From Patescibacteria group bacterium (GTDB taxonomy: Bacteria; Patescibacteriota; Patescibacteriia; UBA2196): DNA of 64,000 nucleotides. Positions 8,705 to 63,428 of this stretch are shown here, one piece after another (the first letter of the stretch is position 1; each line of letters opens with the position of its first letter). The notes below the pieces were generated by a model that was not told the origin of the DNA, did no database searches, and saw nothing but the letters and a program-made list of their open reading frames with translations. The stretch spans positions 354 through 64,353 of the forward strand of contig JAQTPI010000001.1 of NCBI GenBank assembly GCA_028748975.1, read 5' to 3'. Position numbers and translations under genes: made by a program.

Positions 8705-8788
8705 TGTCATCCTGACGACTCGCCGACAAGGCGAGGAGGAAGGATCTCGTACGAGATTCCTCGTCGCCCCGCTCCTCGGAATGACATT
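8705..8788. repeat. intergenic palindromic repeat module ('gtcatcctga...ggaatgaca')
   Basis: Stem-loops 'cgccgacaaggcgaggagg' and 'ggatctcgtacgagattcc'. The terminal 'ggaATGACA' provides the scpA start codon. Confidence 0.7.
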
Positions 8789-9488
8789 TGTTTCAAAAAT
8801 AAACAAGTTTGAAGGTCCGCTTGATCTTCTCTTGCAACTCATTGAAGCCGCTGACTTGGATATTACTGAGGTCTCGATCGCCGATGTGGCCGAACAATTC
8901 ATGGCCTACCTCGCGGCGGTGGAAGAAAAAAATCCGGAAGAACTGGCGGATTTTTTAGTTGTGGCCACAAAACTGCTTTTGATAAAATCGCGCGTGCTTT
9001 TACCAAACGTCGTTTTGGATGAAGAGGGTGAGGGCGATGATTTGGCGCGCCAGCTCAAGATGTATAAAGAATATCTGGACGCCTCCAAAAAAATTGAACA
9101 GATTCTTTTGGACAAAAATATTCTTTTTGCCCGCGAAAAAATTCCGCTGGATATTGAAGCTGTTTTCAATCCGCCCAAAAATATGACCGCCGAAAAACTA
9201 AAAACGCTTTTGATTGGCCTCATCGCCGGCATGGAACCGTTCATTCGCTTGCCGCAAAAATCTTTGGAGCGCGCCGTGTCCATCAAAGAAAAAATCGAAC
9301 AAATCAGAAATAAAATTTTAAACAAAATTAATACCAGTTTTCGCGAACTCGTTGGCGATTCCAAAAACCGCACCGATTTAATCGTCACCTTTTTGGGTCT
9401 TCTGGAATTGGTCAAACAGCGGACAATCGTGGTCAAGCAAGATAAGATGTTTGATGATATTTCCGTATCGCGACTCAACACAGATTAA
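8781..9488 (+). CDS. scpA: segregation and condensation protein A
   Basis: N-terminal 'FEGPLDLLLQLIEAADLDITEVSIADVAEQFMAYL' is the ScpA signature. Confidence 0.8.
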   Translation: MTFVSKINKFEGPLDLLLQLIEAADLDITEVSIADVAEQFMAYLAAVEEKNPEELADFLVVATKLLLIKSRVLLPNVVLDEEGEGDDLARQLKMYKEYLDASKKIEQILLDKNILFAREKIPLDIEAVFNPPKNMTAEKLKTLLIGLIAGMEPFIRLPQKSLERAVSIKEKIEQIRNKILNKINTSFRELVGDSKNRTDLIVTFLGLLELVKQRTIVVKQDKMFDDISVSRLNTD

Positions 9489-9567
9489 TTTTTTGTCATT
9501 CCGGCCCCCGAGCCGGAATCCAGAAAAAATGTTCCTGGATCCCGGGTCACGGCCCGGGATGACATAA
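9489..9567. repeat. intergenic palindromic repeat modules ('tgtcattccggcccccgagccggaatc' plus 'ggatcccgggtcacggcccgggatgaca')
   Basis: Two hairpin modules. The same modules recur at 27125, 11700, 32890, 45400 and 52795. Confidence 0.7.
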
Positions 9568-9583
9568 TTACTACAAAAAATTT

Positions 9584-11629: not shown

Positions 11630-11800
11630 AGAGTGTCATCCTGATCCGCCAGCTGGCGGAGAAGGATCTCGTCGTTTGTCATCCCGTGCCGAGACACGGG
11701 ATCCAGAAAACAAATACATGGATTCCGGGTCAAGCCCGGAATGATAAGCGGCTACGAGATTCCTCGTCCCGAGTGCTCGGGACTCGGAATGACAAACATT
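11630..11800. repeat. cluster of four palindromic repeat modules upstream of ileS
   Basis: 'gtcatcctgatccgccagctggcggagaaggatctcg', 'gtcatcccgtgccgagacacgggatc', 'ggattccgggtcaagcccggaatga' and 'cgtcccgagtgctcgggactcggaatgaca'. Confidence 0.75.
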
Positions 11801-11805
11801 TCTGT

Positions 11806-14742
11806 ATGTTTAATTTACCCACTAAAGAACAGGAAATTCTCAAGCTCTGGCAAGAGAATAATATTTTTGAAAAATCCCTGGCTAAAGACGCACCCAAGGG
11901 CGATTTTGTTTTTTATGACGGTCCGCCGTTTGCCACCGGCACCCCGCACTATGGTCACATCGTCGCCAGTTTAATGAAAGACATTGTGCCAAGATATTGG
12001 ACCATGAAGGGCTTTCGCGTGGAGCGCCGCTGGGGTTGGGATTGCCACGGTTTGCCGATTGAAAATATTGTGGAGGAAGAAATGGGCATCAAAAGCAAAA
12101 AAGATATTGAAAAAATTGGTATTGAAAAATTTAATGAAGCTTGCCACTCCAAAGTTTTAATGTACGCCGAAGAATGGCGTAAAGTTGTGGCCAGAATGGG
12201 CCGCTGGGTTGACATGGACAACGATTATAAAACCATGGATAAAGATTATATGGAATCGATTTGGTGGGTTTTTAAGGAGCTTTGGAATAAAGATTTAATC
12301 TACGAGGGCTACAAATCCATGCACATTTGCCCGCGCTGTGAAACCACTCTTTCACAGTCAGAGGTGGCCGAAGGTTATCGCGACACCAAAGACATTTCTG
12401 TCACTGTAAAATTTGAACTGGTTGATGAACCGGGAACTTTTGTTTTGGCCTGGACCACCACGCCGTGGACTTTAATGGGCAACGTGGCACTCGCGGTTGG
12501 TAAGGATGTTGAGTATTTTAGATTTAAAGGAAAAAATAAAAAAACAGGCGAAGAAATTATTTATATAGTTGCTAAAGATTTAGCCGCAAAAATTTTTGAT
12601 GTTAAAGACGGAAGAATTGCAAATAGATTTATTTATGATGATTTTGAATTTGAATGGAATGGCGCCTACTCGGGAAACACTTTAGCTCATAAATTTAAGA
12701 AGTACAAACCACTTTTTGATTATTATCAAGATAAAAATTTAGAAAACAAAGAAAATCTTTATACCATTCAAACGGCTGATTTTGTGACGACCGAGGATGG
12801 CACCGGCGTAGTGCATATTGCTCCGGCTTTTGGCGAAGACGATCTAAATTTGGGCCGTGCGAAAAAATTGCCGTTTATTCAGCACGTTGGCATGGATGGA
12901 AGGATTAAAGATGAAGTCAAAGATTTTGCCGGCTTGGAAGTCAAACCCAAGGACGACCCGACTGCCACCGACAAAAAAATTATAGAATTTTTGCAAAAGA
13001 AAAATTTGGTTTTTGCCACGGAAGAATACACCCACAGTTATCCGTTTTGTTGGCGCTGTGACAGTCCGCTTTTAAATTACGCCACCAGTTCGCTTTTTGT
13101 CAAAGTGGAAGAAATAAAGAAGCAGGCGCTAAAAACAGCTGAAAGAATAAATTGGGTGCCGGCGCACCTGAAAGAGGGTCGTTTTGGACAATGGCTGGAA
13201 GGCGCCAGAGATTGGTCAATTTCTCGTCAGAGATTTTGGGGTTCGGTCGTTCCGCTTTGGGTTTGCGATAAGTGCGGCGAGAAAAAAGTAATGGGTGGTG
13301 TGGAAGAACTGGAAAAAATAAGTGGCAAAAAAGTTGAAGATTTACACAAACATTATATTGATAAAATTACTTTCAAGTGTGAAAAGCATGACGGCATAAT
13401 GAAAAGAGTTCCCGATGTTTTAGATTGCTGGTTTGAATCCGGCTCCATGCCCTATGCCCAGATGCATTATCCTTTCGAAAATAAGGAAAAATTTGAAGCC
13501 AATTTTCCGGCGGAATTTATTGCCGAAGGCGTGGACCAGACTCGCGCCTGGTTCTATTATATGCATATTTTGGCCAATGGCTTGAAAAAAACCAATGCTT
13601 TCAAAAATGTCATTGCCAACGGTATTGTTTTGGCCGAAGATGGCAAAAAGATGTCCAAGAAATTGCGCAATTACCCCGACCCGATGGATTTAATGGAAAA
13701 ATCCGGTGCTGACACTATGCGTTATTATCTCTGCGCTTCGCAGGTGATGAAGGCCGACAATCTTTGTTTTTCCGAAAAAGACATGAAAGAGCAAACTCGA
13801 TTTTTCAACACGCTTTTTAATGTTTTGTCTTTTTATCAAATGTATGAAAATCAGTTTTCCGGAACAGAACTTTTTCAAGCCGACGCCAAACCGAAAAACA
13901 TTTTGGATAAATGGATTTTGGCGCGCCTTCACGAAACAATAAAAAAGATGACAGAAAAATTGGATGCTTATGACTTGCATGCTGTGCGCGAACTCCCGCT
14001 TTTTATTGACGAACTTTCCACCTGGTATGTCCGCCGATCGCGCGACCGGTTTAAGGGGGATGATGAAAAAGATAAAAACCAGGCCATTTTCACCCTGGGC
14101 AAGGTTTTGTTTGAATTATCAAAATTACTGGCTCCTTTCACTCCTTTTACTGCCGAGCATCTCTATCAAGAACTTGGTAAAAATTGTGGCAGTTTGAAAG
14201 AGTCGGTGCATTTGGAGGATTGGACTGAATATAATAAAAAACTAATTGACCAAAAAGTTTTGGACTACATGAGTGTCACGCACCAAGTGGTGGAGTTGGG
14301 TTTGGCCAAACGCGCGGAAGTTGGGATAAAAGTGAGACAGCCGTTACAAAAATTAACAATTAACAATCAACAATTAACAATAGAATATACAGATTTAATA
14401 AAAGACGAATTGAATGTCAAAGGGGTTGTTTGTGAAAAGGGAAGTGGGGAACTTGCCGTGGAATTAGATACCGAACTCACTGACGAACTTAAAGAAGAGG
14501 GAATTTTACGTGAATTGACCCGCACCATTAATGGCTTAAGAAAAGATGCCAAATTAACCATTGACGATTTTATTAAATTGGAATACAATACTACTGATGA
14601 ACAAATCAGCCGGGTTTTTGAAAAATACAGTGACGATCTCAAAAAATCAATTTTAGCCAAAGAAATCTCCAAAATAGAGGAGGATTTGGAGAAAGTAAAA
14701 ATCAATGAAGCTGAAATTGGTCTGAAAATCACTAAAATTTAA
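11806..14742 (+). CDS. ileS: isoleucyl-tRNA synthetase
   Basis: HIGH motif 'PHYGHIV' and 'KMSKKLRN'. The canonical start MFNLPTKEQEILKLW lies downstream of the repeat cluster. The ORF-track extension through the repeats is rejected. Confidence 0.9.
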   Translation: MFNLPTKEQEILKLWQENNIFEKSLAKDAPKGDFVFYDGPPFATGTPHYGHIVASLMKDIVPRYWTMKGFRVERRWGWDCHGLPIENIVEEEMGIKSKKDIEKIGIEKFNEACHSKVLMYAEEWRKVVARMGRWVDMDNDYKTMDKDYMESIWWVFKELWNKDLIYEGYKSMHICPRCETTLSQSEVAEGYRDTKDISVTVKFELVDEPGTFVLAWTTTPWTLMGNVALAVGKDVEYFRFKGKNKKTGEEIIYIVAKDLAAKIFDVKDGRIANRFIYDDFEFEWNGAYSGNTLAHKFKKYKPLFDYYQDKNLENKENLYTIQTADFVTTEDGTGVVHIAPAFGEDDLNLGRAKKLPFIQHVGMDGRIKDEVKDFAGLEVKPKDDPTATDKKIIEFLQKKNLVFATEEYTHSYPFCWRCDSPLLNYATSSLFVKVEEIKKQALKTAERINWVPAHLKEGRFGQWLEGARDWSISRQRFWGSVVPLWVCDKCGEKKVMGGVEELEKISGKKVEDLHKHYIDKITFKCEKHDGIMKRVPDVLDCWFESGSMPYAQMHYPFENKEKFEANFPAEFIAEGVDQTRAWFYYMHILANGLKKTNAFKNVIANGIVLAEDGKKMSKKLRNYPDPMDLMEKSGADTMRYYLCASQVMKADNLCFSEKDMKEQTRFFNTLFNVLSFYQMYENQFSGTELFQADAKPKNILDKWILARLHETIKKMTEKLDAYDLHAVRELPLFIDELSTWYVRRSRDRFKGDDEKDKNQAIFTLGKVLFELSKLLAPFTPFTAEHLYQELGKNCGSLKESVHLEDWTEYNKKLIDQKVLDYMSVTHQVVELGLAKRAEVGIKVRQPLQKLTINNQQLTIEYTDLIKDELNVKGVVCEKGSGELAVELDTELTDELKEEGILRELTRTINGLRKDAKLTIDDFIKLEYNTTDEQISRVFEKYSDDLKKSILAKEISKIEEDLEKVKINEAEIGLKITKI
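14351..14383 (+). repeat. in-frame 'aattaacaat' tandem repeat inside ileS (encodes INNQQLTI)
   Basis: 'attaacaattaacaatcaacaattaacaat'. The same nucleotide repeat is inserted in-frame in tatD (28703), the helicase (38088) and pheS (41467). Confidence 0.7.
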
Positions 14743-15400: not shown

Positions 15401-15456
15401 GTTTTTGGTGATAAGATTATTTTGTCGTTCCAACTTTCCAATAAACGTGCCGTTAT

Positions 15457-15571
15457 CCCCTCCTTTCGAAGGAGGGGTCGGCCGATACCAATCGGCCGGG
15501 GGTGGTTGTGGTGTTTTTACAACCCCTCCGGTCCCGAGGACTCGGGACCACCTCCCCTTCGAAAGGGGAGG
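15457..15571. mobile_element. ~115-bp MITE-like element with terminal inverted repeats 'cccctcctttcgaaggagggg'/'cctccccttcgaaaggggagg'
   Basis: A second copy at 52433..52548 has the same ends and a related core. In both copies the 3' terminal repeat 'ggggagg' serves as the SD for the next gene (recO, secE). Confidence 0.6.
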
Positions 15572-15579
15572 ATAAAAAT

Positions 15580-21146: not shown

Positions 21147-21590
21147 ATGAGAACACAGATCAACGCAGATTTGAAAAATTCTAATTTTCTTCATGGGGAT
21201 TTGACTTTTGTGATTCGCGGAGTTTTTTATGAGATTCGCAATCAATATGGGCCGGGTCAAAAAGAATCGGTTTATGAAAATTTAGTTTACGAATATTTAA
21301 AAGAAAAAGGTTACGTGGTGGAGAAACAACCGACCATTAATATATATTCTGCTAAAACAAATAACAAAGTTGGGGTTTATAGACCAGATCTTTTAGTAGA
21401 AAATAAAATAATCATTGAAATCAAATCTGCCAGGATTACCACGATTCAAGATGAAAAACAATTATATTTTTATTTACGCAACAGCCAATATGAACTAGGT
21501 CTATTAGTAAATTTTTCCACGCCACATTTTTTTATTAAAAGAATAATTTACTCAAATAGCAAAAAATTATTCCTAAAAAAATCAGTGTAA
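21147..21590 (+). CDS. GxxExxY family protein (PD-(D/E)xK fold)
   Basis: 'GQKESVYENLVYEYLKEKGY...YRPDLLVENKIIIEIKS...GLLVNF'. The start and stop codons are embedded in inverted repeats at 21141-21173 and 21589-21611. Confidence 0.7.
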   Translation: MRTQINADLKNSNFLHGDLTFVIRGVFYEIRNQYGPGQKESVYENLVYEYLKEKGYVVEKQPTINIYSAKTNNKVGVYRPDLLVENKIIIEIKSARITTIQDEKQLYFYLRNSQYELGLLVNFSTPHFFIKRIIYSNSKKLFLKKSV

Positions 21591-22915: not shown

Positions 22916-22928
22916 TTTAATAAATAAT

Positions 22929-23104: not shown

Positions 23105-23116
23105 TTAAAAAATTTT

Positions 23117-27122: not shown

Positions 27123-27209
27123 GTGTTTTGTCATTCCGGCCCCCGAGCCGGAATCTAGGAAATAAAAAAAGACCCAAACTCGTGTTGATGAGTCGGGCCC
27201 CCGCGAAGA

Positions 27210-28237: not shown

Positions 28238-28347
28238 TTACGTCATTCCGAGAGCCGATATTATCGGCTCGATGGAATCTTGGTCGCAAAGATCCCATCG
28301 CTCGCCTCGCTTCGCGGTCGAAGCGGGCTTCGCTCGGGATGACAAAT
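28238..28347. repeat. composite palindromic repeat ('cgtcattccgagagccgatattatcggctcgatggaatcttg...cgggatgaca')
   Basis: Nested hairpins. Related to 31981..32058. Confidence 0.7.
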
Positions 28348-30801: not shown

Positions 30802-31002
30802 ATTTTTTTCTTTCTTTGTTTATTCATCTAATAAAGAATAAACTTTAATTATAATAATTTTGTCATTCCGACCGGAGCGACCCCGAGTACTCGGGGGAGC
30901 GAAGTGGAGGAATCCCTTATACTTTCCATTCAAGAAAGTCGAAGGGATCCCTCGACAAGCTCGGGATGACACTGATAATATTGTAATATTTAATAAAGAC
31001 CA

Positions 31003-31977
31003 ATGTCAAATATTTTTTTATCAAAATTTTTGTCAGAGAAATACGGACGTAAAATTTTTATCTGTGACGAGACAAAAAATCCGACTGGTTCGCATAAGGA
31101 CCACTCTTTTGGCGTCTGGCTGGAAAAAATAAAGGAGGAGGGAAATATAAAAGACTCGGTAATTTCGTCTTCCGGCAATGCCGCGGCTTCGGCAGCATAT
31201 TTTGCGCGGCAATTTGGTTTGCTGCTGCATATTTTTGTTTCGGAAAAAATTAGTAAAGAAAAATTGGAGAAAATAAGATTTTTTGCGGATGGCGGCGTCG
31301 GAAATATCCTCCCCTTTCGAAGGGGAGGTCTCCGACAGCAGTCGGAGGGAGGGGTTGTAATTGGAAACAACAACCACCCCGGCTCTCCGCCAGCTGGCGG
31401 ATTCGCCACCCCTCCTTCGAAAGGAGGGGATAGTGACATTGAAATTAAATTAGTGGCGCGGCCAAAATTTGAAGCAGCCAAAGCAGTTAAAGAAAACGAT
31501 TGGTTATTATTGCGCTCGTCCATTAATGATGATGCGCTACTTGGATATGAGTTCTTGGCAAAAGAGCTGGATGTAATTAATCCTAAAACTATTTTTATTC
31601 CCAGTTCTTCTGGTACGCTGGCGGCGGGCTTAGCTAAATTTTTGAAATCAAAACCAGCTTTTCATTTGGTGCAAACGACAAAAGTTAATACTTTGGTTAA
31701 AAATTTTGATCAAGATTTTGTGCCGGAAGAAAAATCTTTGGCCGACGCGATTGTGGATTTAATCGGCCAGCGCCGGCCGCAAGCGGAAGAAATAATCACA
31801 AGTTCCGGTGGTTTTGGTTGGGTAATCAATAATAAAGAAATAGAATCCGCGCGAGCAGAACTAAAAGAAGCCGGGATTGAGTGTTCCTATACTTCGGCGC
31901 TGGGGCTGGCGGGAATGAAGAAAGCGGTGGAGAAAAATTTTGAAGTTAGAGAACCGATTGTTATAATTGTCACTTAG
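31003..31977 (+). CDS. PLP-dependent enzyme, tryptophan-synthase-beta-like fold (threonine synthase/cysteine synthase superfamily)
   Basis: 'DETKNPTGSHKD' is the PLP-lysine motif. Carries a ~125-nt in-frame repeat insertion at 31309-31435. Confidence 0.55.
   Translation: MSNIFLSKFLSEKYGRKIFICDETKNPTGSHKDHSFGVWLEKIKEEGNIKDSVISSSGNAAASAAYFARQFGLLLHIFVSEKISKEKLEKIRFFADGGVGNILPFRRGGLRQQSEGGVVIGNNNHPGSPPAGGFATPPSKGGDSDIEIKLVARPKFEAAKAVKENDWLLLRSSINDDALLGYEFLAKELDVINPKTIFIPSSSGTLAAGLAKFLKSKPAFHLVQTTKVNTLVKNFDQDFVPEEKSLADAIVDLIGQRRPQAEEIITSSGGFGWVINNKEIESARAELKEAGIECSYTSALGLAGMKKAVEKNFEVREPIVIIVT
31309..31435 (+). repeat. palindromic repeat modules inserted in-frame in the PLP-enzyme gene
   Basis: 'cccctttcgaaggggagg...ccgccagctggcgg...cccctccttcgaaaggagggg' encodes 'ILPFRRGGLRQQSEGG...PPAGGFATPPSKGGD'. 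Confidence 0.7.
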
Positions 31978-32059
31978 TAGCACGTCATTCCGAGCGAAGC
32001 GATGGAATCTTGCGACGAGATCCCATCGCCCCTTTGGGGCTCGGGATGACACTGTAATT

Positions 32060-33412
32060 ATGTCTAATATTCTTTTGCTTTCCACCGACCTGGAAAAATT
32101 CTCCTACCTTATGGAAAAAGGCGGTTTTGGTTTGACGACTTTTGCAGACCAAAAAGAAAAGGCAATACCGGAAAACTGGCCAGTGGATTTTGTGGAATAT
32201 AAAGGGAAAAATTCGACACTGGATATTTTGATGGATGAAAAAATAAAAGAAATAAAAGAAAAAACCGGCGCGCGTTTGGTTTATGTTTTTAAAAATAGTT
32301 TTTTAATAGAAAAAGAACTGGCAAAATTAGATTTTTCACCGCTTAATCCGCCAGCGGAATTAACAGAAAAAATTGAAGGCAAAATTAGTCAGGCTGATTT
32401 TTTTCCGGAAATAAAAGAATTTTTTCCGGAATTTATAATTGCCAAACCTGGCGAAAAAACTTGGGAAGAAATAAAAAAAGAATTAGGCGAAAATTTAATC
32501 GCGCAGTTCAACACCAGTCATTCTGGCGCGGGAACTTTTGAACTTTCGGAAAATTTGTGGCAAGAATGGCAAAAGAAATTTCCGCATCGGCCAATTCGTA
32601 TCAGTAAATTTATTGTCGGTGAAACTTTAACTTTAAATCTGGTAGTTTTGCCAACAGCTATAATTCTGGGCGTGCCAAGCAAGCAACTGACCGGCACGCC
32701 GGGTTTGACTGAACATAAATTCACCACCGTCGGCAATGCCTGGATTACTTTTGACGGAGAAACAAAAAATCAAATGGAAACAATTGCCAAGGGTGTCGGC
32801 GCAATTTTACAAAAGAATAATTTTTTTGGTCCGGCGGGTTTGGATTTGATAGTTGAAAAAATACCCAGCACCGATGTCATCCCCGCGCAGGCGGGGATCC
32901 AGAAAAACGGTTCCTGGATTCCGGGTCAAGCCCGGAATGACAGTAGTGGTGAGCGAAAAACTTATTTGATTGAAATTAACGCGCGCCAGCCGGCCTCTTT
33001 CAATTTGGAAAGTTGGCTCGCGAAATTGGCAAACAGAAAAGGGCTATTTGATTATTTGGTTGATTTTTGGCAGGGGAAAATTTTGCCAGCGGAAATGGAG
33101 CCACTCGCGATTTCGGGCGGACAGATTGTGGTGCGTGCCAAAAGCGACTGGTGTGGTATAATAAAATCGACCCCAAAAACAGGCGTTTATGGCCTGGATA
33201 ATGGCCAACTGGTGTTAGTGACCGAGAGGCTCTTTTTAGCCTCAAAAAACGAGTTTTTAGCCCATTTTTGCCCTATAGGACGGCAATGTTTGCCTGGAGG
33301 CGAGGTTTTTCGGGTGCAGACAGGGAAGAACTTTATTGATTCTAATGGTGGGCTAAGTGAAGAGATTTTGACGATAATTGAGAAATTGAAGAAGGAAATA
33401 ATTTTTTATTAA
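32060..33412 (+). CDS. ATP-grasp family ligase
   Basis: C-terminal 'GLDLIVEK...TYLIEINARQP' is the ATP-grasp E-x-N-x-R motif. Start MSNILLL after repeat 31981..32058. In-frame repeat insertion at 32881-32942. Confidence 0.5.
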   Translation: MSNILLLSTDLEKFSYLMEKGGFGLTTFADQKEKAIPENWPVDFVEYKGKNSTLDILMDEKIKEIKEKTGARLVYVFKNSFLIEKELAKLDFSPLNPPAELTEKIEGKISQADFFPEIKEFFPEFIIAKPGEKTWEEIKKELGENLIAQFNTSHSGAGTFELSENLWQEWQKKFPHRPIRISKFIVGETLTLNLVVLPTAIILGVPSKQLTGTPGLTEHKFTTVGNAWITFDGETKNQMETIAKGVGAILQKNNFFGPAGLDLIVEKIPSTDVIPAQAGIQKNGSWIPGQARNDSSGERKTYLIEINARQPASFNLESWLAKLANRKGLFDYLVDFWQGKILPAEMEPLAISGGQIVVRAKSDWCGIIKSTPKTGVYGLDNGQLVLVTERLFLASKNEFLAHFCPIGRQCLPGGEVFRVQTGKNFIDSNGGLSEEILTIIEKLKKEIIFY

Positions 33413-44139: not shown

Positions 44140-44235
44140 TTTCTGGATTCCCGCTTTCGTGGGAATGACACGACTATCGACGACCTCGCCCCGACCCTCT
44201 CCTTGTAAAGGAGAGGGGGACGAACCTTTTCCCTT
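44140..44235. repeat. repeat modules including 'gacgacctcgccccgaccctctccttgtaaaggagagggggacga'
   Basis: The same module is at 49465-49525. Both are followed by 'ttattac' tandem repeats preceding a start codon. Confidence 0.7.
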
Positions 44236-45353: not shown

Positions 45354-45477
45354 TTCACGAATGCCTCGCGAATGCTCTCACTAATTTTCACAAATAAACT
45401 AACCTGTCATCCCGGGCTTGACCCGGGATCCAGAAAACAACTCCTAGATTCCGGCTCACGGGCCGGAATGACACAAA

Positions 45478-46309: not shown

Positions 46310-46420
46310 AAAAGTGTCATTCTGAACGAAAGCCGATAGTAATCGGCTGAAGTGAAGAATCCCTTAAACAAACAATGACGAAGGGATCCTTCGCTAACGC
46401 TCAGGATGACAGTCACTCAA
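46310..46420. repeat. palindromic repeat modules upstream of pheT
   Basis: 'gtcattctgaacgaaagccgatagtaatcggctgaagtgaagaatccc...gaagggatccttcgctaacgctcaggatgaca'. Confidence 0.7.
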
Positions 46421-46422: not shown

Positions 46423-49065
46423 ATGCTACTCTCACTAAACTGGCTAAAAACCTACGTCGATTTACCAAAAAACCTGACTGCCAAAAAACTGGCGGCGGAC
46501 TTGACCATGACCACTTGCGAAGTGGAACGGGTGGAAAATCTGGCGGAAAAGTTTGACAACATGGTTGTTGGTAAAATTATTTCTATAAAAAATCATCCTA
46601 ATGCTGATAAACTTAAAATTGTCATGACGGATATAGGCAATCAGAAATTAGAAATCAGAAATCAGGGGCAAAAAAATATTGTTCAAATTGTCTGCGGGGG
46701 AACGAATCTACGCGAAAATATGCTCGTGGCGGTGGCCCTGCCCGGCGCCAAAGTGCGCTGGCATGGCGAGGGCGAGTCGGTGGTTATGGAAAAGGCAAAA
46801 ATCCGGGGCGAAGAATCTTTTGGCATGATTTGCGCCAGTAGCGAAATCGGTCTTGCTGATGTGTTTCCGGCTGAAAGCGATCGAGAAATTATTGATTTAA
46901 GCGGAATTAAGAAAATAAAAGCCGGACAAAACCTGGCCGAGGCTTTGGGCATGGACGATATGATTATTGAAATTGAAAATAAGACAATTACTAACAGACC
47001 TGACTTATGGAATCATCTTGGAATAGCGAGGGAGTTATCAGTCATATATAATACAAGTTTGAAGGCTAAAAATTTCCAATTTCCAATTTCCAATTTCCAA
47101 AAAAATTTCAAATCTAAAATTTCAAATTCCAAACTTGACATTCAAATCGATGATAAACAAGCTTGTTCCAGATATATTGGTTGTTTAGTAAAAAATGTTA
47201 AAGTCGCGGCGTCGCCGGAATGGCTGCAAAAAAGTTTGGCGAGCGTGGGCATTCGGCCGATTAACAACATTGTGGACATCACTAATTATGTCATGCTGGA
47301 CGTCGGACAGCCGATGCATGCTTTTGATAAAGCAAAGCTTTATCAAAAGCAATTTCCAATTTCCAAGATACAATTTCCAAACGATAAAAATATAAATATC
47401 ATTGTAAGAAAAGCCAAAAATGGTGAAAAAATAAAATCACTGGACGGAATAGAAAGAAAACTTGATGATTCAATGTTGATTATTGCGGACGCTAAAAAAC
47501 CAATCGCCATTGCCGGAATTATGGGCGGGGAGGAATCGGGCATTGATGAAAAAACAAATGAAATTATTTTTGAGGCGGCGAATTTCAACGCCATGTCAAT
47601 TCGGAAAACTTCGCAAAAATTGGGTTTGCGTTCCGAATCTTCCAATCGGTTTGAAAAAAATCTGGATCCGAATTTTGCCGAGCTGGCCATGGCGCGCGCG
47701 CTAAAATTAGTCAAAGAACTTTGTCCCGAAGCGGAAATTGTTGCTTACCAAGATGAAAATTTGGTGAAGGAGAAAAAAATAGTGATAAAAGTAGATCATA
47801 GTTTCCTTGAGAAAAAGATCGGGCAGACGCTTGATATGAAGGATATAGTAAAAAAACTAGAGAGCCTTGGTTTTAAGGTTGATACTAAAAAAGATAAAAA
47901 AGAAATAACGAAATATCGCGCCTCGTCCCGCAATTCTGCGGGACTCGGCGCTGGAAATAACGATATAATTTATCAAATTGAAGTTCCGAGCTGGCGGGCG
48001 ACTGGGGACATTTTCATTCCTGAGGATATAGTAGAAGAAGTAGCGCGGGTGATTGGTTATGACAATTTGGCAGAGCACAAAATTCTGGTGGAATTGGCAA
48101 AACCCAAAATTCAAATGGAGCAAATTTTGGAGAACAGAACCAAGAAATTTTTGGCTTTGGCCGGCGGTTTTAGCGAGGTTTTTAACTATCCTTGGGCCAA
48201 AGAAATTACCTTGAAAATACTTGGAAAAAATGATAAAATTATAAGTGTGGCAAACCCCCAAAGCGACGATAATTCGGCCCTGCAAAATAGCCTAATTCCA
48301 AACTTGCTTAAAAACACCGAAGACAATCTGCGCTATTTTGATGAGTTTAAAATTTTTGAATTGGCGCGGGTGTATCTGCCGGAATTTAATAAGATTGATA
48401 GTAAATTTCAAGACAAACTTCCCAATCAGCCAAAAATGTTGGCCGGTGTTGTGGTGACGCAAAAAGACAAAAACGCATTTTTGGAGCTAAAGGGAGTATT
48501 AGAAGGACTATTTAAGAAACTAGAAACTAGGAATTGGAAACTCGTCATCCCGAGCGAGCGGAGCGAAGCGATGGGATCTTTTTCATATTTAGATAAAGAA
48601 AAACTTTTGTCTATTGAAATCGACGGGAAAGAAATTGGTTTTATTGGTGAGTTGAAAGAAAATATTTATCGTCAGTTTGGTTTCAAAAACAGAAAAGTGG
48701 CGTTGTTTGAAATTAATTTTGATAAGTTGGTTTTGGCAGAGCAAAAAACGGAAGGTGTAAAATACGCGCCCTTGCCGCAGTTTCCATCAATAATTCGTGA
48801 TTTGGCGTTTGAATTGGATTGGAAAGTCAGGTGGTCTGAGATAGTCGAAGGGATTCTTCGCTTCGCTCAGAATGACAAACTCATTAAAAATGTGGAATTT
48901 CTTTCTGAGTTTGGACTGGGCGACAGAAAATCAGTGGCTTTCAGAATTGTCTATCAAGCCGACCGGACGCTTAAAGAGGAAGAGGTGGAAGTGGTGGAAA
49001 AGAAAATTGTGGAAATAATAAGTAAAAAATTTAACGCGCGGCTTCGCGCGGCGCTGGGGAAATAA
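46423..49065 (+). CDS. pheT: phenylalanyl-tRNA synthetase beta subunit
   Basis: Canonical start MLLSLNWLKTYVD, tRNA-binding and B3/B4 regions, C-terminal FDX-like domain. Several in-frame repeat insertions (46635-46665, 47071-47135, 47340-47395, 47925-47944, 48540-48585, 48845-48880). Confidence 0.9.
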   Translation: MLLSLNWLKTYVDLPKNLTAKKLAADLTMTTCEVERVENLAEKFDNMVVGKIISIKNHPNADKLKIVMTDIGNQKLEIRNQGQKNIVQIVCGGTNLRENMLVAVALPGAKVRWHGEGESVVMEKAKIRGEESFGMICASSEIGLADVFPAESDREIIDLSGIKKIKAGQNLAEALGMDDMIIEIENKTITNRPDLWNHLGIARELSVIYNTSLKAKNFQFPISNFQKNFKSKISNSKLDIQIDDKQACSRYIGCLVKNVKVAASPEWLQKSLASVGIRPINNIVDITNYVMLDVGQPMHAFDKAKLYQKQFPISKIQFPNDKNINIIVRKAKNGEKIKSLDGIERKLDDSMLIIADAKKPIAIAGIMGGEESGIDEKTNEIIFEAANFNAMSIRKTSQKLGLRSESSNRFEKNLDPNFAELAMARALKLVKELCPEAEIVAYQDENLVKEKKIVIKVDHSFLEKKIGQTLDMKDIVKKLESLGFKVDTKKDKKEITKYRASSRNSAGLGAGNNDIIYQIEVPSWRATGDIFIPEDIVEEVARVIGYDNLAEHKILVELAKPKIQMEQILENRTKKFLALAGGFSEVFNYPWAKEITLKILGKNDKIISVANPQSDDNSALQNSLIPNLLKNTEDNLRYFDEFKIFELARVYLPEFNKIDSKFQDKLPNQPKMLAGVVVTQKDKNAFLELKGVLEGLFKKLETRNWKLVIPSERSEAMGSFSYLDKEKLLSIEIDGKEIGFIGELKENIYRQFGFKNRKVALFEINFDKLVLAEQKTEGVKYAPLPQFPSIIRDLAFELDWKVRWSEIVEGILRFAQNDKLIKNVEFLSEFGLGDRKSVAFRIVYQADRTLKEEEVEVVEKKIVEIISKKFNARLRAALGK
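47071..47135 (+). repeat. 'caatttccaa' tandem repeat inserted in-frame in pheT
   Basis: 'aatttccaatttccaatttccaatttccaaaaaaatttcaaatctaaaatttcaaattccaaac' encodes 'NFQFPISNFQKNFKSKISNSK'. It resembles the arms of the 176-bp MITE. Confidence 0.7.
47925..47944 (+). repeat. MITE hairpin 'gtcccgcaattctgcgggac' inside pheT (in-frame, 'SRNSAGL')
   Basis: Identical core to the 'cccgcaattctgcggg' hairpin of the three MITE copies and of 56958. Confidence 0.7.
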
Positions 49066-49354: not shown

Positions 49355-49505
49355 ACTTTCCTCCCTATTTTGATTGTTTTAGCTCAATTGAGCTGGTTTT
49401 AGCAGAGACGTGGCTCTGCCGTGAATTACTAATTCAATTCTATCGTACCTAAAATTTTATGTCAAGCGACGGCTGGACGACCTCACCCCGACCCTCTCCT
49501 TGTAA

Positions 49506-51737
<2,232 letters not shown>

Positions 51738-51741: not shown

Positions 51742-51884
51742 ACCTCCCCCAACCCCCTCCTTATAAAGGAGGGGAGCTCCTGGCATCTCCCCCTTGATAA
51801 GGGGGAGCGCGAGGGAGTCAGTTAGCTGATATATTAATTTGTCATTCCCGCGATCCGCCAGCTGGCGGAGGGAATTCAGAAAAT
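51742..51884. repeat. cluster of palindromic repeat modules
   Basis: 'cccctccttataaaggagggg', 'ctcccccttgataagggggag' and 'gtcattcccgcgatccgccagctggcggagggaat'. Confidence 0.7.
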
Positions 51885-52307: not shown

Positions 52308-52432
52308 CGAAGAAATAGTTAAACCTGTTTTATCCCTATTTGACAACCCAAACATGCCTGTGCTATCATTACAGCATAAGGCCTCCAGGGCCTTTTAAAA
52401 TCGATAAAAAATAGCTTTAAAAGCGGAATTTA

Positions 52433-52548
52433 TCCCCTCCTTTCGAAGGAGGGGTGCCGAGTGAAACGAGGCGGGGTGGTTGTAACTTCAACCACAACCC
52501 CTCTGGGTTTCGCTTCGCTCAACCCACCTCCCCTTCGAAAGGGGAGGA
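52433..52548. mobile_element. ~115-bp MITE-like element, second copy of the 15457..15571 family
   Basis: Terminal repeats 'cccctcctttcgaaggagggg'/'cctccccttcgaaaggggagg'. The 3' end supplies the secE SD. Confidence 0.6.
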
Positions 52549-52559
52549 TAACAAAACAT

Positions 52560-53432: not shown

Positions 53433-53442
53433 CAGTAATAAT

Positions 53443-53618
53443 TTCCAATAACCAAGAAACAATTTCCAAATAAGTTCCAAATACCAAATTCCAAATAATC
53501 ATATTTTGAATTTTGGTTATTGAAATTTGTGGTTGTCCTTAGGACAACCATCCCGCAATTCTGCGGGATGCCAGCGAAGCTGGCATTTATTTGGAAATTG
53601 GAACTTGTATCTTGGAAC
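53443..53618. mobile_element. ~176-bp MITE-like element, copy 3 of 3
   Basis: Starts 10 bp after the nusG stop. Nearly identical to copies 1 and 2. Confidence 0.65.
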
Positions 53619-53700
53619 TTAAAAGATAAAGAATAAGAAATAAACGCGATTAACTTTGTCTTGCTTCTGGATAAAATTAATCTCCAATAAAGATGATTAT

Positions 53701-56943: not shown

Positions 56944-57120
56944 TGCCAGCTCCGCTGGCATCCCGCAATTCTGCGGGATGGTTGCCCCAGGGCAATCAAA
57001 ATTTTGGTGTGCCGCTGTTGCGGCACGTAATGATAATAAACCCCTCCCAAACCCTCCCCTTAGTAAGGGGAGGAGCTTATGACGAGCTCCCCTCCTTTAT
57101 AAGGAGGGGGTTGGGGGAGG
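56944..57120. repeat. repeat cluster including MITE hairpins 'gccagctccgctggc' and 'cccgcaattctgcggg' plus 'cccctccccttagtaaggggaggag'/'cccctcctttataaggaggggg' modules
   Basis: Partial, rearranged relative of the 176-bp MITE. Confidence 0.65.
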
Positions 57121-58275: not shown

Positions 58276-58650
58276 AATAATATGTCATTCCCGCGCAGGC
58301 CTGCCCGACTGAATGACTTCAGTCGTTCGGGCGGGCGGGAATCTTGAAAATAAAAAAGACACGCATCGCATTCGTTATTGTGAACGGGCCAATAAAGTGA
58401 ATGTAACGCGCGTCCGACCGCTTATTTATTAGTCGCAGCGGGTTTGATGTTGATTGGCGACAGCATTTTTTTACGAGCGCTATCCTCGAAGGGTTGTTTT
58501 CTTTGACTTTCCCTCAAAGTCGCGTGGCGCAGAAACCGGATTATGCCCGTCCATAACTTATCCAGTGTTATCAGTTTATATTGTTTCCAAAAAATATGCA
58601 AATTAAAATCAAAAAACTAATAAATAAAAAATAAACAATCAGGAGGAATT

Positions 58651-60016: not shown

Positions 60017-60019
60017 ATA

Positions 60020-61714
60020 ATGAAACAAGAATTACTTGCTTGTGGGCGGAGTTTTGTCCAAACGCCGCTGGAAATGGATTGGACCAGAAATGAAAAACTA
60101 GTTCTGGAGAGATTTTTTACCAATCTGACGGGAAGAATTTTTTGCATCTACAACGTTCTGCCGGCCAACATGATTGGCGTCCTTTTTGCCATGTATTCTC
60201 GCATGAAAAATTCACGCGGACTCCGCGGCACTTTTGTTGACAGTTTCCTACCGCAAGTTCTGGCGGCTTTTGTCCCTGAGTGTCAGGAAAGATTTGGCGG
60301 CAACGCAGTTATTTTTTTGAAGGAAAACAAGATAAAATCTCTGGATGACTTTATTGACTGTTCGAAAGAAACCAGGCAAGCCCTCGGAATTTTTCTATTA
60401 GGTATGAACACCAATCCGGATTATCTGGAAAAACTGTGCAACGCCGAAAAAATGAGGAAATTTTTATCAGACTGGCTGGACAAATGGGGTCACAACTCCA
60501 TTGGCCGTCCGGTCATGTTTTATATTTGCTGTGAGGAGATCTCCATCCGCGCGGCCAAATCACTTGAATGGTCGCGGCCCGGCTCCGGTTACATTGAATT
60601 GAGCACCAGATATGTCCGCATGTCAGATAAAGGCGTTTATCCCATTTGGAACGAACTCGGTCTTTTTGGCATCTCACCAAGCGATGTGCAAGCGGTAATT
60701 AATGAAAGTTTTCAAAAATATCAAGAATTGCAAGGAGAAAATTTTGATGGTCCGTTTCCAAATTTTTTAAGGGAGAAATACGCGGCATTAATGAATGAAG
60801 AGCAATTGAAGCAGGGAGTTATTGGCGAGTCGTGTGATGTTTTGGGAAACTTGCTTCCTACCGCCACTTTAACTTCAGTTGGCATTGGTGTTTCCGGCGA
60901 AGGCATACCGGACATGCTCCGGCATTTGCTTTTGGATAATTCGCCTGAAAATGAAGCCATTTCCGAATCAATCATTCAAGAATTGGGGAAAGTTGGTGGC
61001 GGGCAGTTTGTGCGCCATTTGGAAATTTCTGAATGGCAAAAAGCTGATTGGGGATATCTTGATAATGAACCAGTCACGCCAGTCATGTTTGCGCCAGATG
61101 AAGATTATGTAGAAAACTTGCTGTGGTATATTATGGGAAAGAAGATTTGTTTTTCTGACATTATTGTATGGCCGGAACGTATTTGGCACATGGAAAGTTT
61201 ACAACGAGGCTCACACGATAAGTTATTCGCCGATTTTGAAGCCGTGGCCGTGCACTTTGTGAACCAGATGACTTTCCGTGGTTGGCGCGATTTGCATCGC
61301 ATGAGTTTTTGCACGCATCACCGCGGATATTTAACGCCTGAAATCGGTTTTTACCGCTATGACAAACCACATCCGCAATTATTGTGTGACACTTTTAATA
61401 ACATTCATATCAAAAACAAATCAATTTATAAATTGATGAAATCAAAAGCCGTCCCCGACGAATTGATTGAATATCCGTTGGCATTGGGAAATTTGATTCA
61501 GTTCACGCTTTCGGCCAATCTTCGCGAGTGTGAGTTCATGAATTGGCAAAGAACCAAGCCCGACGTTAATCACGAGGTCAGGCGCGTATTTCTTTCTTTT
61601 GAACAGAGGTTGAGAGAAAAATATTGGTGGTGGAAAAAAATCTCGCGTGCCGACATGACACCCGGTTATGTCTTTGCTCGAGGAGGTAGTAACATTCCTT
61701 TGGGCAAAATATGA
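60020..61714 (+). CDS. large ThyX-like (flavin-dependent thymidylate synthase) tandem-domain protein, divergent
   Basis: 'RPGSGYIELSTRYV' and 'THHRGYLTPEIGFYRY' resemble the ThyX 'RHRxxSxxxxSxRY' motif in two halves. Sits in the tdk-tmk context. The assignment is an inference. Confidence 0.35.
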   Translation: MKQELLACGRSFVQTPLEMDWTRNEKLVLERFFTNLTGRIFCIYNVLPANMIGVLFAMYSRMKNSRGLRGTFVDSFLPQVLAAFVPECQERFGGNAVIFLKENKIKSLDDFIDCSKETRQALGIFLLGMNTNPDYLEKLCNAEKMRKFLSDWLDKWGHNSIGRPVMFYICCEEISIRAAKSLEWSRPGSGYIELSTRYVRMSDKGVYPIWNELGLFGISPSDVQAVINESFQKYQELQGENFDGPFPNFLREKYAALMNEEQLKQGVIGESCDVLGNLLPTATLTSVGIGVSGEGIPDMLRHLLLDNSPENEAISESIIQELGKVGGGQFVRHLEISEWQKADWGYLDNEPVTPVMFAPDEDYVENLLWYIMGKKICFSDIIVWPERIWHMESLQRGSHDKLFADFEAVAVHFVNQMTFRGWRDLHRMSFCTHHRGYLTPEIGFYRYDKPHPQLLCDTFNNIHIKNKSIYKLMKSKAVPDELIEYPLALGNLIQFTLSANLRECEFMNWQRTKPDVNHEVRRVFLSFEQRLREKYWWWKKISRADMTPGYVFARGGSNIPLGKI

Positions 61715-61859
61715 CAAGTTCAATCCCCGCGAACATTCAGTTCGCGGGCTTTTTTTTATTTTTTAGGCGTGATAAAATTAAAGTATAAATAATTGTCATT
61801 CCGACTGAAGCGAAGGGATCCTTCGACTTCGTCCTCGCTTCGCTCGGACTTCGCTCAGG

Positions 61860-63428
61860 ATGACACAAACCAAATACAAACCAACAATCGGTCTGGAAAT
61901 TCACGTGGAATTGAAGACCAAGACCAAAATGTTTTGCTCCTGCCTAAACGAAACCTGGAAAATCGGGCAGGAAGAATTACCACCCAACATTAATGTTTGT
62001 CCGGTGTGTTTGGCGCACCCGGGAACCTTGCCTGTGCCAAACATAGAAGCAATTAAAGCCGTAATCAAAGCCGGCCTGGCCCTGAATTGCCAAATCGCGG
62101 AAAAATCAAAATTTGACCGCAAACAATATTTTTACCCTGACTTGCCCAAAGGTTATCAAATTTCCCAATATGACCAGCCGCTTTGCGAGCATGGGTCAAT
62201 TGAAATTAATGGCAAAAAAATTGGCATCACTAGAATTCATTTGGAAGAAGACACTGGCAAGCTTTCACACGTGAGTGACGGCACCTTGGTTGATTTTAAT
62301 CGCGCCGGCGTGCCGCTCATGGAACTCGTAACTGAACCGGATATTGAAAGCGGGGCGGAAGCCAAAGAATTTTGTCAGGAAATTCAGGCAATTTTCAGAG
62401 AGTTAAAAATTTCCGACGCGGATATGGAAAAAGGGCAGATGCGTTGTGAAGTTAATATCTCAATAAGCGACAAGGGACAAGAGACAAGAGACAAGAAAAA
62501 ATTGGGGACAAAGGTAGAAATAAAGAATCTCAATTCGTTTAGAACAGTGGAAAGAGCAATTGATTACGAAATTAAGCGTCAGACGGAAATTTTGGAAGCT
62601 GGTGAAAAAGTAGTTCAGGAAACGCGCGGTTTTGATGATGTCAAACAAAATACTTTTTCCCAGCGAATTAAAGAAGGTGCGGCTGATTATCGTTATTTTC
62701 CAGAGCCGGACATTCCGCCGATGGTCTTCCAACCCCCTTTAGGGGAGGTCGCGGAAACCTTGCCTAAAGGCAGTAAGAATTTTTTTATTGACATCGAAAA
62801 AATCAAGCAGGAATTGCCCGAAATGCCGCAGGCCAAAAGAAAAAGATTTGCGGATGAATATGGTTTTGCTTTGGCTGATGCCAAAATTATCACCGCCACG
62901 CCGAAGCTGGCGGACTACGCGGAACAAGTGATTTCCGAATTGCGCCAGTGGCTTTTGGATTCCGGCCAGTTTGAAGGTACCGAGGAAGAAATTTGGGCCG
63001 CCAATCGCGACAGAGCGGTAAAATTAGTAGCGGGCTGGCTCATTAATAAACTCGGCGGACTTTTAAACGCGCGCAAATTAACTTTAGCCGATAACACGAT
63101 TACGGCGGAAAATTTTGCCGAATTTATTACCATGATTTTCACGCGCAAAGTTTCTTCCACCAATGCCAATAAACTTTTGGAAAGAATGTTGGAAACCGGT
63201 GGTGATCCAAGTAATATCTTGGAAGATGAAGATTTGGGTGGGGGAGAGGATTTGGATTTGAATAAATTGATTGAAGAAATTATCAACAAAAACCCCGAGA
63301 CCGTGGCCCAGTTTAAAGCCGGCAAAACCGCGCTCTTAAAATTTTTCCTCGGTCAAGCGATGAAAGAATCCAAGGGCAAAGCCGATCCCGTGGAAGCAGA
63401 AAACTTACTACTTCAAAAATTAAGTTAA
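61860..63428 (+). CDS. gatB: aspartyl/glutamyl-tRNA amidotransferase subunit B
   Basis: 'KPTIGLEIHVELKTKTKMFCSC' and 'YQISQYDQPLCEHG'. The start codon lies inside the repeat end 'ctcaggATGACA'. In-frame repeats at 62463-62500 and 62725-62745. Confidence 0.9.
   Translation: MTQTKYKPTIGLEIHVELKTKTKMFCSCLNETWKIGQEELPPNINVCPVCLAHPGTLPVPNIEAIKAVIKAGLALNCQIAEKSKFDRKQYFYPDLPKGYQISQYDQPLCEHGSIEINGKKIGITRIHLEEDTGKLSHVSDGTLVDFNRAGVPLMELVTEPDIESGAEAKEFCQEIQAIFRELKISDADMEKGQMRCEVNISISDKGQETRDKKKLGTKVEIKNLNSFRTVERAIDYEIKRQTEILEAGEKVVQETRGFDDVKQNTFSQRIKEGAADYRYFPEPDIPPMVFQPPLGEVAETLPKGSKNFFIDIEKIKQELPEMPQAKRKRFADEYGFALADAKIITATPKLADYAEQVISELRQWLLDSGQFEGTEEEIWAANRDRAVKLVAGWLINKLGGLLNARKLTLADNTITAENFAEFITMIFTRKVSSTNANKLLERMLETGGDPSNILEDEDLGGGEDLDLNKLIEEIINKNPETVAQFKAGKTALLKFFLGQAMKESKGKADPVEAENLLLQKLS

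Follow-up and report, generated by a model that had tools for sequence, protein, structure and literature searches.

Palindromic repeats at the start codons of scpA and gatB in a Patescibacteria genome: probable crowding against native starts, with no new initiation site

Can a mobile repeat hand a neighbouring gene the signal at which its translation begins? The question is raised by a stretch of 64,000 nt from a Patescibacteria (Candidate Phyla Radiation, CPR) metagenome-assembled genome (MAG), called the window below. Here the start codons of scpA (8781) and gatB (61860) lie within the last six nucleotides of intergenic palindromic modules, and the only Shine-Dalgarno (SD)-like motif ahead of two further genes, recO and secE, lies at the end of a second palindromic element. 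A preliminary description of the window had concluded that such mobile repeats were exapted as translation-initiation regions. The comparison with relatives reported here points elsewhere: the repeats have probably crowded against native Met-Thr starts by ordinary selfish-repeat biology, adding no new initiation site. We evaluated 54 gene starts in the window, which has a G+C content of 41% and almost every gene on the + strand, against loci from relatives' genomes (L numbers) and homologous proteins (P numbers), the relatives being found by homologue searches and two collection scans. A scan of GTDB representatives gave 68% ScpA identity for the closest genome, with none nearer. From the chosen starts, GatB, ScpA, RecO, SecE, PheT, TatD and IleRS are identical end to end to the NCBI-annotated proteins, which come from one MAG contig of 128,430 bp.

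The scpA module (8705..8786; TGTCATCC...CTCGGAATGACA) is an inverted dimer of family-1 repetitive extragenic palindromic (REP) units with a TGTC tag, ATCCT/ATTCC stems and the centre CTCGTACGAG. Its last 6 nt, ATGACA, are codons 1 and 2 of scpA (8781..9488, + strand, 235 aa, Pfam SMC_ScpA), whose start is that of the NCBI annotation MDD5289576.1, and no ATG, GTG or TTG occurs between the module ATG and the conserved FEGPLDLL nine codons downstream. A second family-1 dimer occupies the gatB leader (61794..61865; TGTCATTCC...CTCAGGATGACA), and its last 6 nt, again ATGACA, are codons 1 and 2 of gatB (61860..63428, + strand, 522 aa, identical to the annotated GatB P0001). Here the IGLEIH motif runs from residue 10, and a comparison of the N-termini of 120 homologues gave no alternative start before it. 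Real starts lying elsewhere were rejected for both genes, as neither has an in-frame alternative ahead of its conserved motif and the NCBI annotation is concordant; the called starts imply the N-terminal peptides (M)TFVSKINKFEGPLDLLLQLIEAADLDITEVSIADVAEQF... and (M)TQTKYKPTIGLEIHVELK. ATGACA opens only these two of the 54 window genes. The proposal that module ends supply the two starts is therefore correct for the present state of the genome, where the ATG of the terminal hexamer is annotated and is the sole possible start, and it is not supported as a statement about evolutionary donation, since the same starts are found in relatives free of the repeat.

A terminator scan placed an intrinsic terminator (61726-61757) upstream of gatB, followed by a conserved box of extended -10-like type, ...GGCGTGATAAAAT (61770-61778; together 61726..61778, + strand). 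The box is conserved in L001, L003, L004, L129 and L130 and is a putative promoter, which would place the gatB module in the 5' untranslated region (UTR). A sigma-70 scan also matched ATGACA-17-AACAAT inside gatB; this was taken as a consensus coincidence.

The six genomes that share this terminator and the box TTTTTTATTTTTTAGGCGTGATAAAAT upstream of gatB (the window, L001, L003, L004, L129 and L130) vary in the sequence after the box. L129 (GatB 71% identical) has no repeat there, and 7 nt past the box reads ATGACAGCAACCAAATACAAACCAACT (start ATGACAGCAACCAAATACAAACCA); the window reads ATGACACAAACCAAATACAAACCAACA (start ATGACACAAACCAAATACAAACCA), with the same hexamer and the same N-terminal length. 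A homologous module, its left tag decayed, is present in L130 (79%), where the module ATG is the gatB start. Three further relatives have a repeat followed by a start of their own: a GTAG...CTAC dimer, then AAAGTA, then a ATGACACAAACC start in L001 (86%); a different TGTC dimer, then GAAT and an ATG out of frame with the module ATG in L003 (89%); and a half module, then TTC and an ATG in frame in L004 (80%). Another 36 gatB leaders were mostly repeat-free; of the genes behind them, L063 and L077 open with an ATGACA that no family-1 end adjoins. Among GatB homologues of ~70-80% identity, M-x-x-x-K/N-Y-x-P-T is a common nine-residue form of the N-terminus. On the simplest reading of these alignments, ATG-ACA would be the native gatB start and the leader a recurrent landing place for several REP types.

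Three observations on the gatB loci of relatives are recorded beside this comparison. The gatB mRNA of L129 may be leaderless or almost so, the start lying 7 nt past its TGATAAAT box (1470-1510), while the window has a leader of ~80 nt after the box, nearly all of it repeat. The dimer of L001 (9945-10000; GTAGGGACAGGTCTGAACCTGTCC...GGACAGCTCGAGAGCTGTCCCTAC) is REPIN-like, a GTAG...CTAC inverted dimer of another REP superfamily at the site of the window's TGTC dimer. In some relatives (L130 719-2749, encoding P0006; also P0014 and P0036) the gatB product is 640-680 aa long and has a PF13366 PD-(D/E)XK 'GxxExxY' domain between two GatB_N matches, which suggests that a nuclease gene was inserted in, or fused with, gatB; a free-standing PF13366 gene is present in the window at 21147-21590.

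The scpA loci of relatives tell a similar story. In repeat-free L005 (ScpA 68% identical) a 9-nt spacer leads to the start ATGGCATTTGTT (MAFVPKIGQFEGP), at the same codon position as the window start ATGACATTTGTT (MTFVSKINKFEGP). L008, also repeat-free and with a TAATG overlap between the upstream gene and scpA, has the same start-to-FEGP distance as the window, and the start is one codon nearer FEGP in L119 (TAATG overlap, no repeat) and in L007. L122 and L123 (64%) carry a dimer with a decayed right end, CAGGACGAC, 12 nt upstream of a separate ATGACATTTATA, and the native start of L122 is ATGACATTT (ATGACA). In L006 a half module precedes the gene's own ATG by 13 nt, and in L120 (94%) the right unit alone is present, fused to ATGACATTTGTT, with an upstream gene that differs from the window's. 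Both the position of the scpA start and, in essence, its hexamer are thus found where the repeat is missing, which does not support donation. Relatives lacking the repeat were the comparison by which the preliminary description was itself to be judged, and they keep the same start in both genes (gatB in L129; scpA in L005 and L008).

The window spacer TAATTTATAAAAGGGG was also considered as a relic of an older TAATG start of the kind seen in L119, an idea that was dropped because L005 has TAATTTAT too, together with the same start position. The TAATG overlap of relatives joins scpA to an upstream ybaK-like gene. In the window the stop of that gene lies 89 nt before the scpA AUG and 13 nt before the hairpin base, a geometry that would be unfavourable for coupling by unfolding on the evidence reviewed in PMC12548453.

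That a repeat end can lie on a start codon follows from the anatomy of family 1. The tag and the first two stem bases read (T/C)GTCAT, so every outward end reads ATGAC(A/G) on the opposite strand and an ATG is built in; the terminal inverted repeats of the family are TGTCAT...ATGACA. An example of the unit is TGTC-ATTCCGGC-CCCCGA-GCCGGAAT-CCAG. Ten canonical units in the window have the TGTC tag, a perfect 8-bp stem starting with AT (stems include ATTCCGGC, ATCCCCGC and ATCCCGGG), a loop of 4-6 nt and a CCAG or CTAG tail. When hairpins were sought without regard to the tag, TGTC adjoined 14 of 16 and the tail was found on 11 (CCAG on 8/16, CTAG on 3/16); CGTC-tagged ends are present too, at 28241 and 31983. 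The repeat end GRATGACA occurs in 29 copies on both strands against 3.21 +/- 1.74 in shuffled sequence, and 0/100 shuffles reached 29. Units mostly form inverted dimers with the tags outward and a short, often self-complementary spacer, of which the window has at least nine, and an inner dimer (11677-11747) is nested within the spacer of an outer one (11634-11794). Within the family, the scpA and gatB modules form a variant subtype: they keep the TGTC tag and the AT start, but have 5-bp stems (ATCCT/AGGAT, ATTCC/GGAAT; ATYCC) and long, partly self-pairing nested loops of 12-34 nt, rich in GCGAAGC.

In its tag, stem, tail, inverted dimers and dispersal, family 1 matches the published description of the CGTC/TGTC-tagged REP superfamily, of which it is, as judged from sequence features, a member. 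Other assignments were rejected. A classical miniature inverted-repeat transposable element (MITE) would agree with the terminal inverted repeats, but no target-site duplication was seen on inspection of 5 nt to either side of the dimers and of the two copies of the second element. Identity with GTAG REPIN/RAYT elements was set aside because the window units are tagged TGTC/CGTC and a GTAG...CTAC dimer occurs only in the relative L001. A repeat of the mycobacterial interspersed repetitive unit (MIRU) type does not fit units that are palindromic and not tandem; no in-frame start codon lies inside the scpA module, and 8781 is the first start of its open reading frame (ORF). Rfam at gathering thresholds gave no match to the modules or to any repeat family in the whole window, and Pfam detected no transposase, Y1 included, among the 20 window ORFs scanned, ~35 other window ORFs lying outside that scan. 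A search of the literature on REP-type repeats in Patescibacteria/CPR found nothing specific.

Family-1 dimers also end close to other genes of the window. A canonical TGTC dimer between scpA and scpB (9494..9564; predicted fold -40.5 kcal/mol, z -5.6) stops 19 nt short of the scpB ATG (9584), and the nested dimers (11634..11794) end 11 nt before the ileS ATG at 11806. The module ends that had been placed just 5' of tatD and pheT were recovered there: a dimer with a left CGTC tag and a right TGTC-type end (28241..28344) stops 9 nt before the tatD ATG at 28354 (Pfam TatD_DNase), and another (46315..46411) stops 11 nt before the true pheT ATG at 46423, the start at 46375 in the ORF list not being the true one. 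Further dimers end 31 nt before the ATG at 31003 of a pyridoxal phosphate (PLP)-dependent enzyme gene (30861..30971), 8 nt before the ATG at 32060 of an ATP-grasp gene (31983..32051, left CGTC tag) and 4 nt before the ATG at 45478 of an M14 carboxypeptidase-like gene (45405..45473, canonical; predicted fold -33.6 kcal/mol, z -5.6). A single canonical unit (27129..27158, + strand) lies 6 nt past the stop codon at 27122, and other single units lie at 39525-39561, 42904-42951, 42977-43006, 44141-44170, 51840-51880 and 58283-58352.

How often such an end starts a gene was counted in the window and ~1.27 Mb of relatives' sequence. A strict simple-hairpin filter for repeat ends lost the scpA and gatB modules, with their nested loops, and a looser pattern was used instead. 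Two of the 98 candidate ends (30 in the window, 68 in relatives) start a gene, both of them in the window. None of the 68 in relatives clearly does so; an end at nusG in L062 lies in frame with the gene, 8 codons ahead of where it likely starts.

The comparative evidence indicates that the repeats of family 1, and those of the second family described below, are mobile. In L124 the spacer between secE and nusG contains a dimer with 83% identity to the scpA module. A canonical dimer at 32875..32942 lies within the ATP-grasp ORF and is translated in frame (…DVIPAQAGIQKNGSWIPGQARND…), and in an alignment the resulting segment of ~29 aa was confined to the window and absent from 8 ATP-grasp homologues; the homologues P0258 and P0260 have repeat-encoded insertions of their own, at another site. 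A single unit (48841..48877, + strand) is translated in the 3' part of pheT (…IVEGILRFAQNDK…). In the PLP-dependent enzyme ORF (31003), a family-2 element (31304..31437, - strand) is translated in frame (…PFRRGGLRQQSEGG…PPSKGGD…) and divides the Pfam PALP match into two stretches. Presence, type and position that vary between relatives, nesting, and in-frame tolerance within ORFs are all consistent with the repeats behaving as selfish or neutral DNA.

Family 2, the element ahead of recO and secE, is a composite palindrome of five hairpins, ~123-134 nt long, with the termini TTATCC...GGATAA. The copies agree in the outer and central arms (TATCCCCTCCTTTCGAAGGAGGGGT ... GGGGTGGTTG...CAACCCCTCC ... 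ACCTCCCCTTCGAAAGGGGAGGATA) and have nothing in common in the two inner hairpins. The copy in the recO leader (15453..15575, + strand; predicted fold -83.2 kcal/mol, z -7.5) has the terminal hairpin CCTCCCC-TTCGAAA-GGGGAGG, which sets GGAGG at a distance of 8 nt from the ATG (15580); the copy in the secE leader (52430..52551, + strand; predicted fold -68.9 kcal/mol, z -7.1) places it 12 nt before the ATG at 52560. The preliminary description had recognized a 115-bp element at both sites and had seen that its GGAGG is the only SD-like motif before either gene. Both points were reproduced: the coordinates 15457-15571 are exact for CCCCTCC...GGGGAGG and those of the second copy are off by one (52434-52547), with an inverted repeat that extends further, to the limits given above.

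Although this GGAGG is derived from the element, it appears not to be needed, does not stand at a fixed functional distance and is predicted to be inaccessible. A strong SD-like motif at -22..-4 precedes 13 of the 54 window starts. Ten of these motifs are native, with spacings of 5-9 nt, and three are repeat-borne (recO, spacing 8 nt; secE, 12 nt; ORF 51885, 13 nt). About 75% of window genes have no SD, and leaders are mostly A+T-rich. The recO spacing falls within the native range, and those of secE in the window and in L124 (15 nt) fall outside it. The recO leaders of L005 and L006 have neither element nor SD, and that of L007 has a family-1 unit instead, again with no SD. At secE, the family-2 element is found at the same site only in the closest group, L124-L128, with a spacing of 15 nt. 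Inspection of 73 secE leaders from more distant relatives revealed no family-2 element in any and no SD in most, the region from the 5' hairpin to the ATG being mostly short and A+T-rich. Both predicted folds, recO and secE, pair the whole of the GGAGG with its CCTCC complement. The terminal hairpins are CCYCC/GGRGG by composition, so any family-2 copy before a gene will show GGAGG.

Further families of G+C-rich intergenic hairpins are present at 44195-44217, 49492-49514, 51750-51775 and 57053-57110 (CCCTCTCCTTGTAAAGGAGAGGG, twice, CCCCTCCTTATAAAGGAGGGG and CCTCCCCTTAGTAAGGGGAGG); all have CCYCC/GGRGG arms, so SD-like motifs derived from hairpin arms are common in the window. The secE leader also carries a conserved small hairpin, seen in the window (52379-52400) and in the leaders L039-L118, with TTTTAAAA after it (in the window, AGGCCTCCAGGGCCTTTTAAAA). 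A promoter-like TTGACA/TATAAT pair immediately precedes this hairpin in many of the 73 relatives, where secE begins 5-25 nt downstream of it. The hairpin resembles a 5'-terminal stem-loop, or else a weak terminator or attenuator of the secE-nusG operon, perhaps linked to NusG-dependent termination.

What the repeats would do to initiation was assessed from predicted folds. The scpA module (-39.9 kcal/mol, z -2.9) and the gatB module (-27.5 kcal/mol, z -3.1) both place the AUG in the closing stem TGTCAT:ATGACA, the gatB AUG having an unpaired probability of 0.02. The predicted energy needed to open -18..+12 had a median of 14.2 kcal/mol for 13 repeat-flanked starts versus 7.1 for the 41 others (Mann-Whitney p = 7e-4), and recO had the highest value of all 54. 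The net effect of the repeats on initiation is thus predicted to be a mild hindrance by added structure, a cost and not an aid to ribosome binding in a genome whose leaders are for the most part unstructured and A/U-rich. The suggestion that the hairpins could gate ribosome access agrees with these energies as far as hindrance goes, and stops short of a demonstrated regulatory device.

From the states in relatives we infer the following order of events. Short intergenic spacers would have become saturated with REP-type palindromes, selfish or neutral, in a genome where scpA and gatB already had ATG-ACA (Met-Thr) as their native start, or ATG-GCA as in some relatives. A repeat end would have come to lie exactly over the native hexamer either through adjacent insertion and collapse of two near-identical hexamers or through an insertion preference, with scpA and gatB retaining their ancestral start position and N-terminal length after the repeat arrived. 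At recO and secE the family-2 GGAGG would be new, yet superfluous, since these genes and most others are SD-less. Exaptation as translation-initiation regions is not supported on this evidence: the starts appear to predate the repeats in relatives, and the SD motif seems unneeded, is variably spaced and is predicted to be paired.

Several points weigh against this account. The polarity of change was read by parsimony from relatives that share only 64-89% protein identity. A module end serving as the start is an old arrangement, common to the window and L130 (79% GatB identity), and it survives rearrangement in L120, where the right unit and ATGACATTTGTT are left. In L003 and L004, the closest gatB relatives, a separate ATG stands 3-4 nt past the module end, and it is possible that the repeat ATG took over initiation in the window lineage; a lost repeat could in principle have left the ATGACA of L001 or L129 as its footprint. 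By our own estimate, two exact coincidences among ~9 ends within 40 nt of a start compare with ~0.2 expected under a uniform-position null, and a non-random factor, be it targeting, collapse or selection, is behind them. The structural effects are all predictions, and the organism is uncultured.

One such factor would be targeted insertion, in which the TGTC/GACA tag or ATGACA itself is the preferred target of the machinery that moves REPs, in the manner of the tetranucleotide targets of the IS200/IS605 type, and the hexamer was not brought in by the repeat. In the window, a repeat end coincides exactly with the start hexamer of the two ATGACA genes and of no other gene, although this amounts to two cases only. 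The repeat-free orthologous sites read ATGACA (L129) or ATGGCA (L005), as targeting would have it, but collapse of tandem ATGACA-ATGRCA hexamers fits the same data. The gatB leader is a recurrent site, with a repeat in five of six genomes (the window, L001, L003, L004 and L130; not L129) and at least three repeat types. Elsewhere, single units have the tag beside unrelated flanks, so the tag travels with the unit, and an inverted dimer has two tags, of which at most one can be the target. For CGTC REPs no transposase is known (PMC3733652), which leaves room for such a mechanism. On balance we consider targeting unlikely as the explanation. A wider proposal, that REPs home to native ATGACA starts and that in CPR bacteria their insertions repeatedly lock the AUG of short-leader or leaderless genes (compare gatB of L129) in a hairpin and make translation dependent on its opening or processing, strikes us as doubtful.

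True exaptation, in which repeats supplied starts and SD motifs that are now depended on and are kept by selection as initiation regions, is likewise improbable. The repeat ATG is indeed the only usable start of scpA and gatB, but gatB of L129 has the same start hexamer and N-terminal length with no repeat, the scpA start is the same in L005 and L008, and L122 has a separate native ATGACA. Retention can be cited in its favour, as L120 keeps the right unit and its ATG despite a changed left half and upstream gene, a module-end start is common to the window and L130, and the separate ATG just past the module end in L003 and L004 implies that start switching near the repeat has occurred; against this, only 2 of 98 candidate repeat ends start a gene. 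As for the SD motif, a native-like spacing of 8 nt at recO and the maintenance of the family-2 element at secE in L124-L128 are what exaptation would predict, whereas the recO and secE genes of relatives work without an SD, the secE spacings are 12 and 15 nt, and motif and AUG are paired in predicted folds, with opening energies about twice the median.

A function at the RNA level, with the hairpins serving in RNase protection, in RNase III processing to a leaderless mRNA or in ybaK-like/scpA coupling and the AUG overlap forming part of the device, is very unlikely: modules do lie in transcribed positions (operon spacers, and leaders after a terminator and a conserved -10-like box) with folds more stable than those of shuffles, the TAATG overlap in relatives suggests coupling, the L129 gatB looks leaderless with its ATG 7 nt past the box, many REPs are regarded as RNA elements (PMC3733652) and an RNA-unfolding coupling model has been reviewed (PMC12548453), but no Rfam family matches, repeat type and position vary between close relatives and the repeat is absent in some, and the upstream stop is poorly placed for coupling with scpA.

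Several other repeats and insertions were noted in the window and its relatives. A third repeat family, 191 nt long, is present in three copies (22923-23113, 39024-39214 and 53437-53627) that are 94-99% identical, which suggests recent spread. Three adjacent hairpins (TGGTTGTCCTTAGGACAACCA, TCCCGCAATTCTGCGGGA and TGCCAGCGAAGCTGGCA) lie in its middle, between two A/T-rich arms of the TTCCAA type, and each copy begins directly after a stop codon (22915, 39023 and 53432). ARAGORN found no tRNA or tmRNA in the whole window, and did not take the three-hairpin cores as tRNA-like. Two 36-nt runs of GACAAGA heptamers, 92% identical to each other, are translated within two essential genes, one in gatB (62463-62498; ISISDKGQETRDKKK) and one at 51369-51404 in ORF 49572..51737, identified as gyrB from a match to L124. 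Comparable A-rich repeats of short period (families D2, D3, D5 and D6) occur within pheT and further ORFs. Several kinds of inserted repeat seem to be tolerated in the coding sequence of this genome. Near residue 505 of the ileS product, L005, L006, L007 and L122 carry an extra ~540-600 nt, annotated His_Phos_1 in L122 (1206 aa), which the window IleRS (11806-14742, 978 aa) is without. A mechanical ORF list runs ileS (11686), recO (15502), pheT (46375) and secE (52461) upstream through the repeats, giving peptides such as VPRHGIQKTNTWIPGQARNDK, and one public collection includes a 96-aa SecE call with a repeat-encoded extension (P0125).

Repeats that supply expression signals are familiar from the Correia elements of Neisseria. 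Ogata and colleagues are said to have described, in 2000, the Rickettsia palindromic elements (RPEs), palindromic repeats of a small genome that are inserted in frame in protein genes without destroying them. The mycobacterial MIRUs, reportedly described by Supply and colleagues in 1997, are said to be direct, often tandem units with a small ORF coupled to the downstream gene by a 4-nt overlap. The window modules resemble MIRUs as repeats at start codons in operons, and differ in being palindromic and non-tandem and in having no internal start in the scpA frame. MIRUs insert at start codons within operons with little harm to the downstream gene (PMC12548453). In the pneumococcal BOX element the boxC end carries the start codon of transcribed hypothetical ORFs, with no SD (Croucher et al. 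2011, PMC3049150), whereas the window genes are conserved housekeeping genes whose start appears older than the repeat.

The closest likeness is to palindromic repeats of the REP type. Like REPIN-RAYT systems (Bertels & Rainey 2011, PMC3116915), family 1 pairs inverted REPs around a short spacer into one long hairpin, has many dispersed copies and includes singletons that look like decayed dimers; unlike them, it is tagged TGTC/CGTC and not GTAG, and the 20 window ORFs scanned include no Y1 transposase. The paper by Di Nocera, De Gregorio & Rocco (2013, PMC3733652) places Rickettsia RPE-4/RPE-6 and Neisseria dRS3 in the CGTC/TGTC superfamily and gives its design as a 4-nt unpaired tag CGTC (variants TGTC and CCTC), a stem of 8-9 bp whose first two pairs are A-T and T-A, a loop of 4-5 nt and a CCA tail. 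It also discusses RPE-1, mentions copies inside genes, states that no dedicated transposase is known, and notes that GTAG REP ends often give TAG stop codons to flanking ORFs. By that text, family 1 agrees with the superfamily in tag, stem, tail, inverted dimers, short self-complementary spacers, placement between co-directional genes, copies in ORFs and termini overlapping coding signals. It departs from it in loops of 4-6 nt against the published 4-5 nt, in the 5-bp stems and long nested loops of the scpA and gatB modules, and in two features, a Patescibacteria host and overlap with a start codon, that the accessible text does not describe. With the RPEs the window repeats share in-frame coding insertions; family 2 (~123-134 nt) falls in the RPE-1 size class, by size only, and family 1 has the tag design given for RPE-4/RPE-6 in PMC3733652, in a host of another phylum. 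Repeats in contact with coding signals were already known; new here are the host phylum and the overlap with the start codons of two housekeeping genes.

Were donation true, streamlined genomes would have in mobile repeats a supply of ready-made translation starts, and were the hexamer a target, it would be the first mechanistic handle on the movement of a REP superfamily without a transposase. As it stands, the locus offers a small lead on the target choice of REPs with no known transposase, namely the question whether the tag-side hexamer is the insertion target. It also calls for caution in annotation, since repeats can encode N-terminal extensions and spurious ORFs (11686, 15502, 46375 and 52461) and apparent SD motifs can be mere hairpin arms. 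For the biology of CPR bacteria, the window puts on record REP-type elements and RPE-like in-frame insertions: CGTC/TGTC REPs are abundant in a Patescibacteria genome of a kind usually called repeat-poor, pressed against and into essential genes, and the ATG built into each repeat end lets that end coincide harmlessly with a Met-Thr start.

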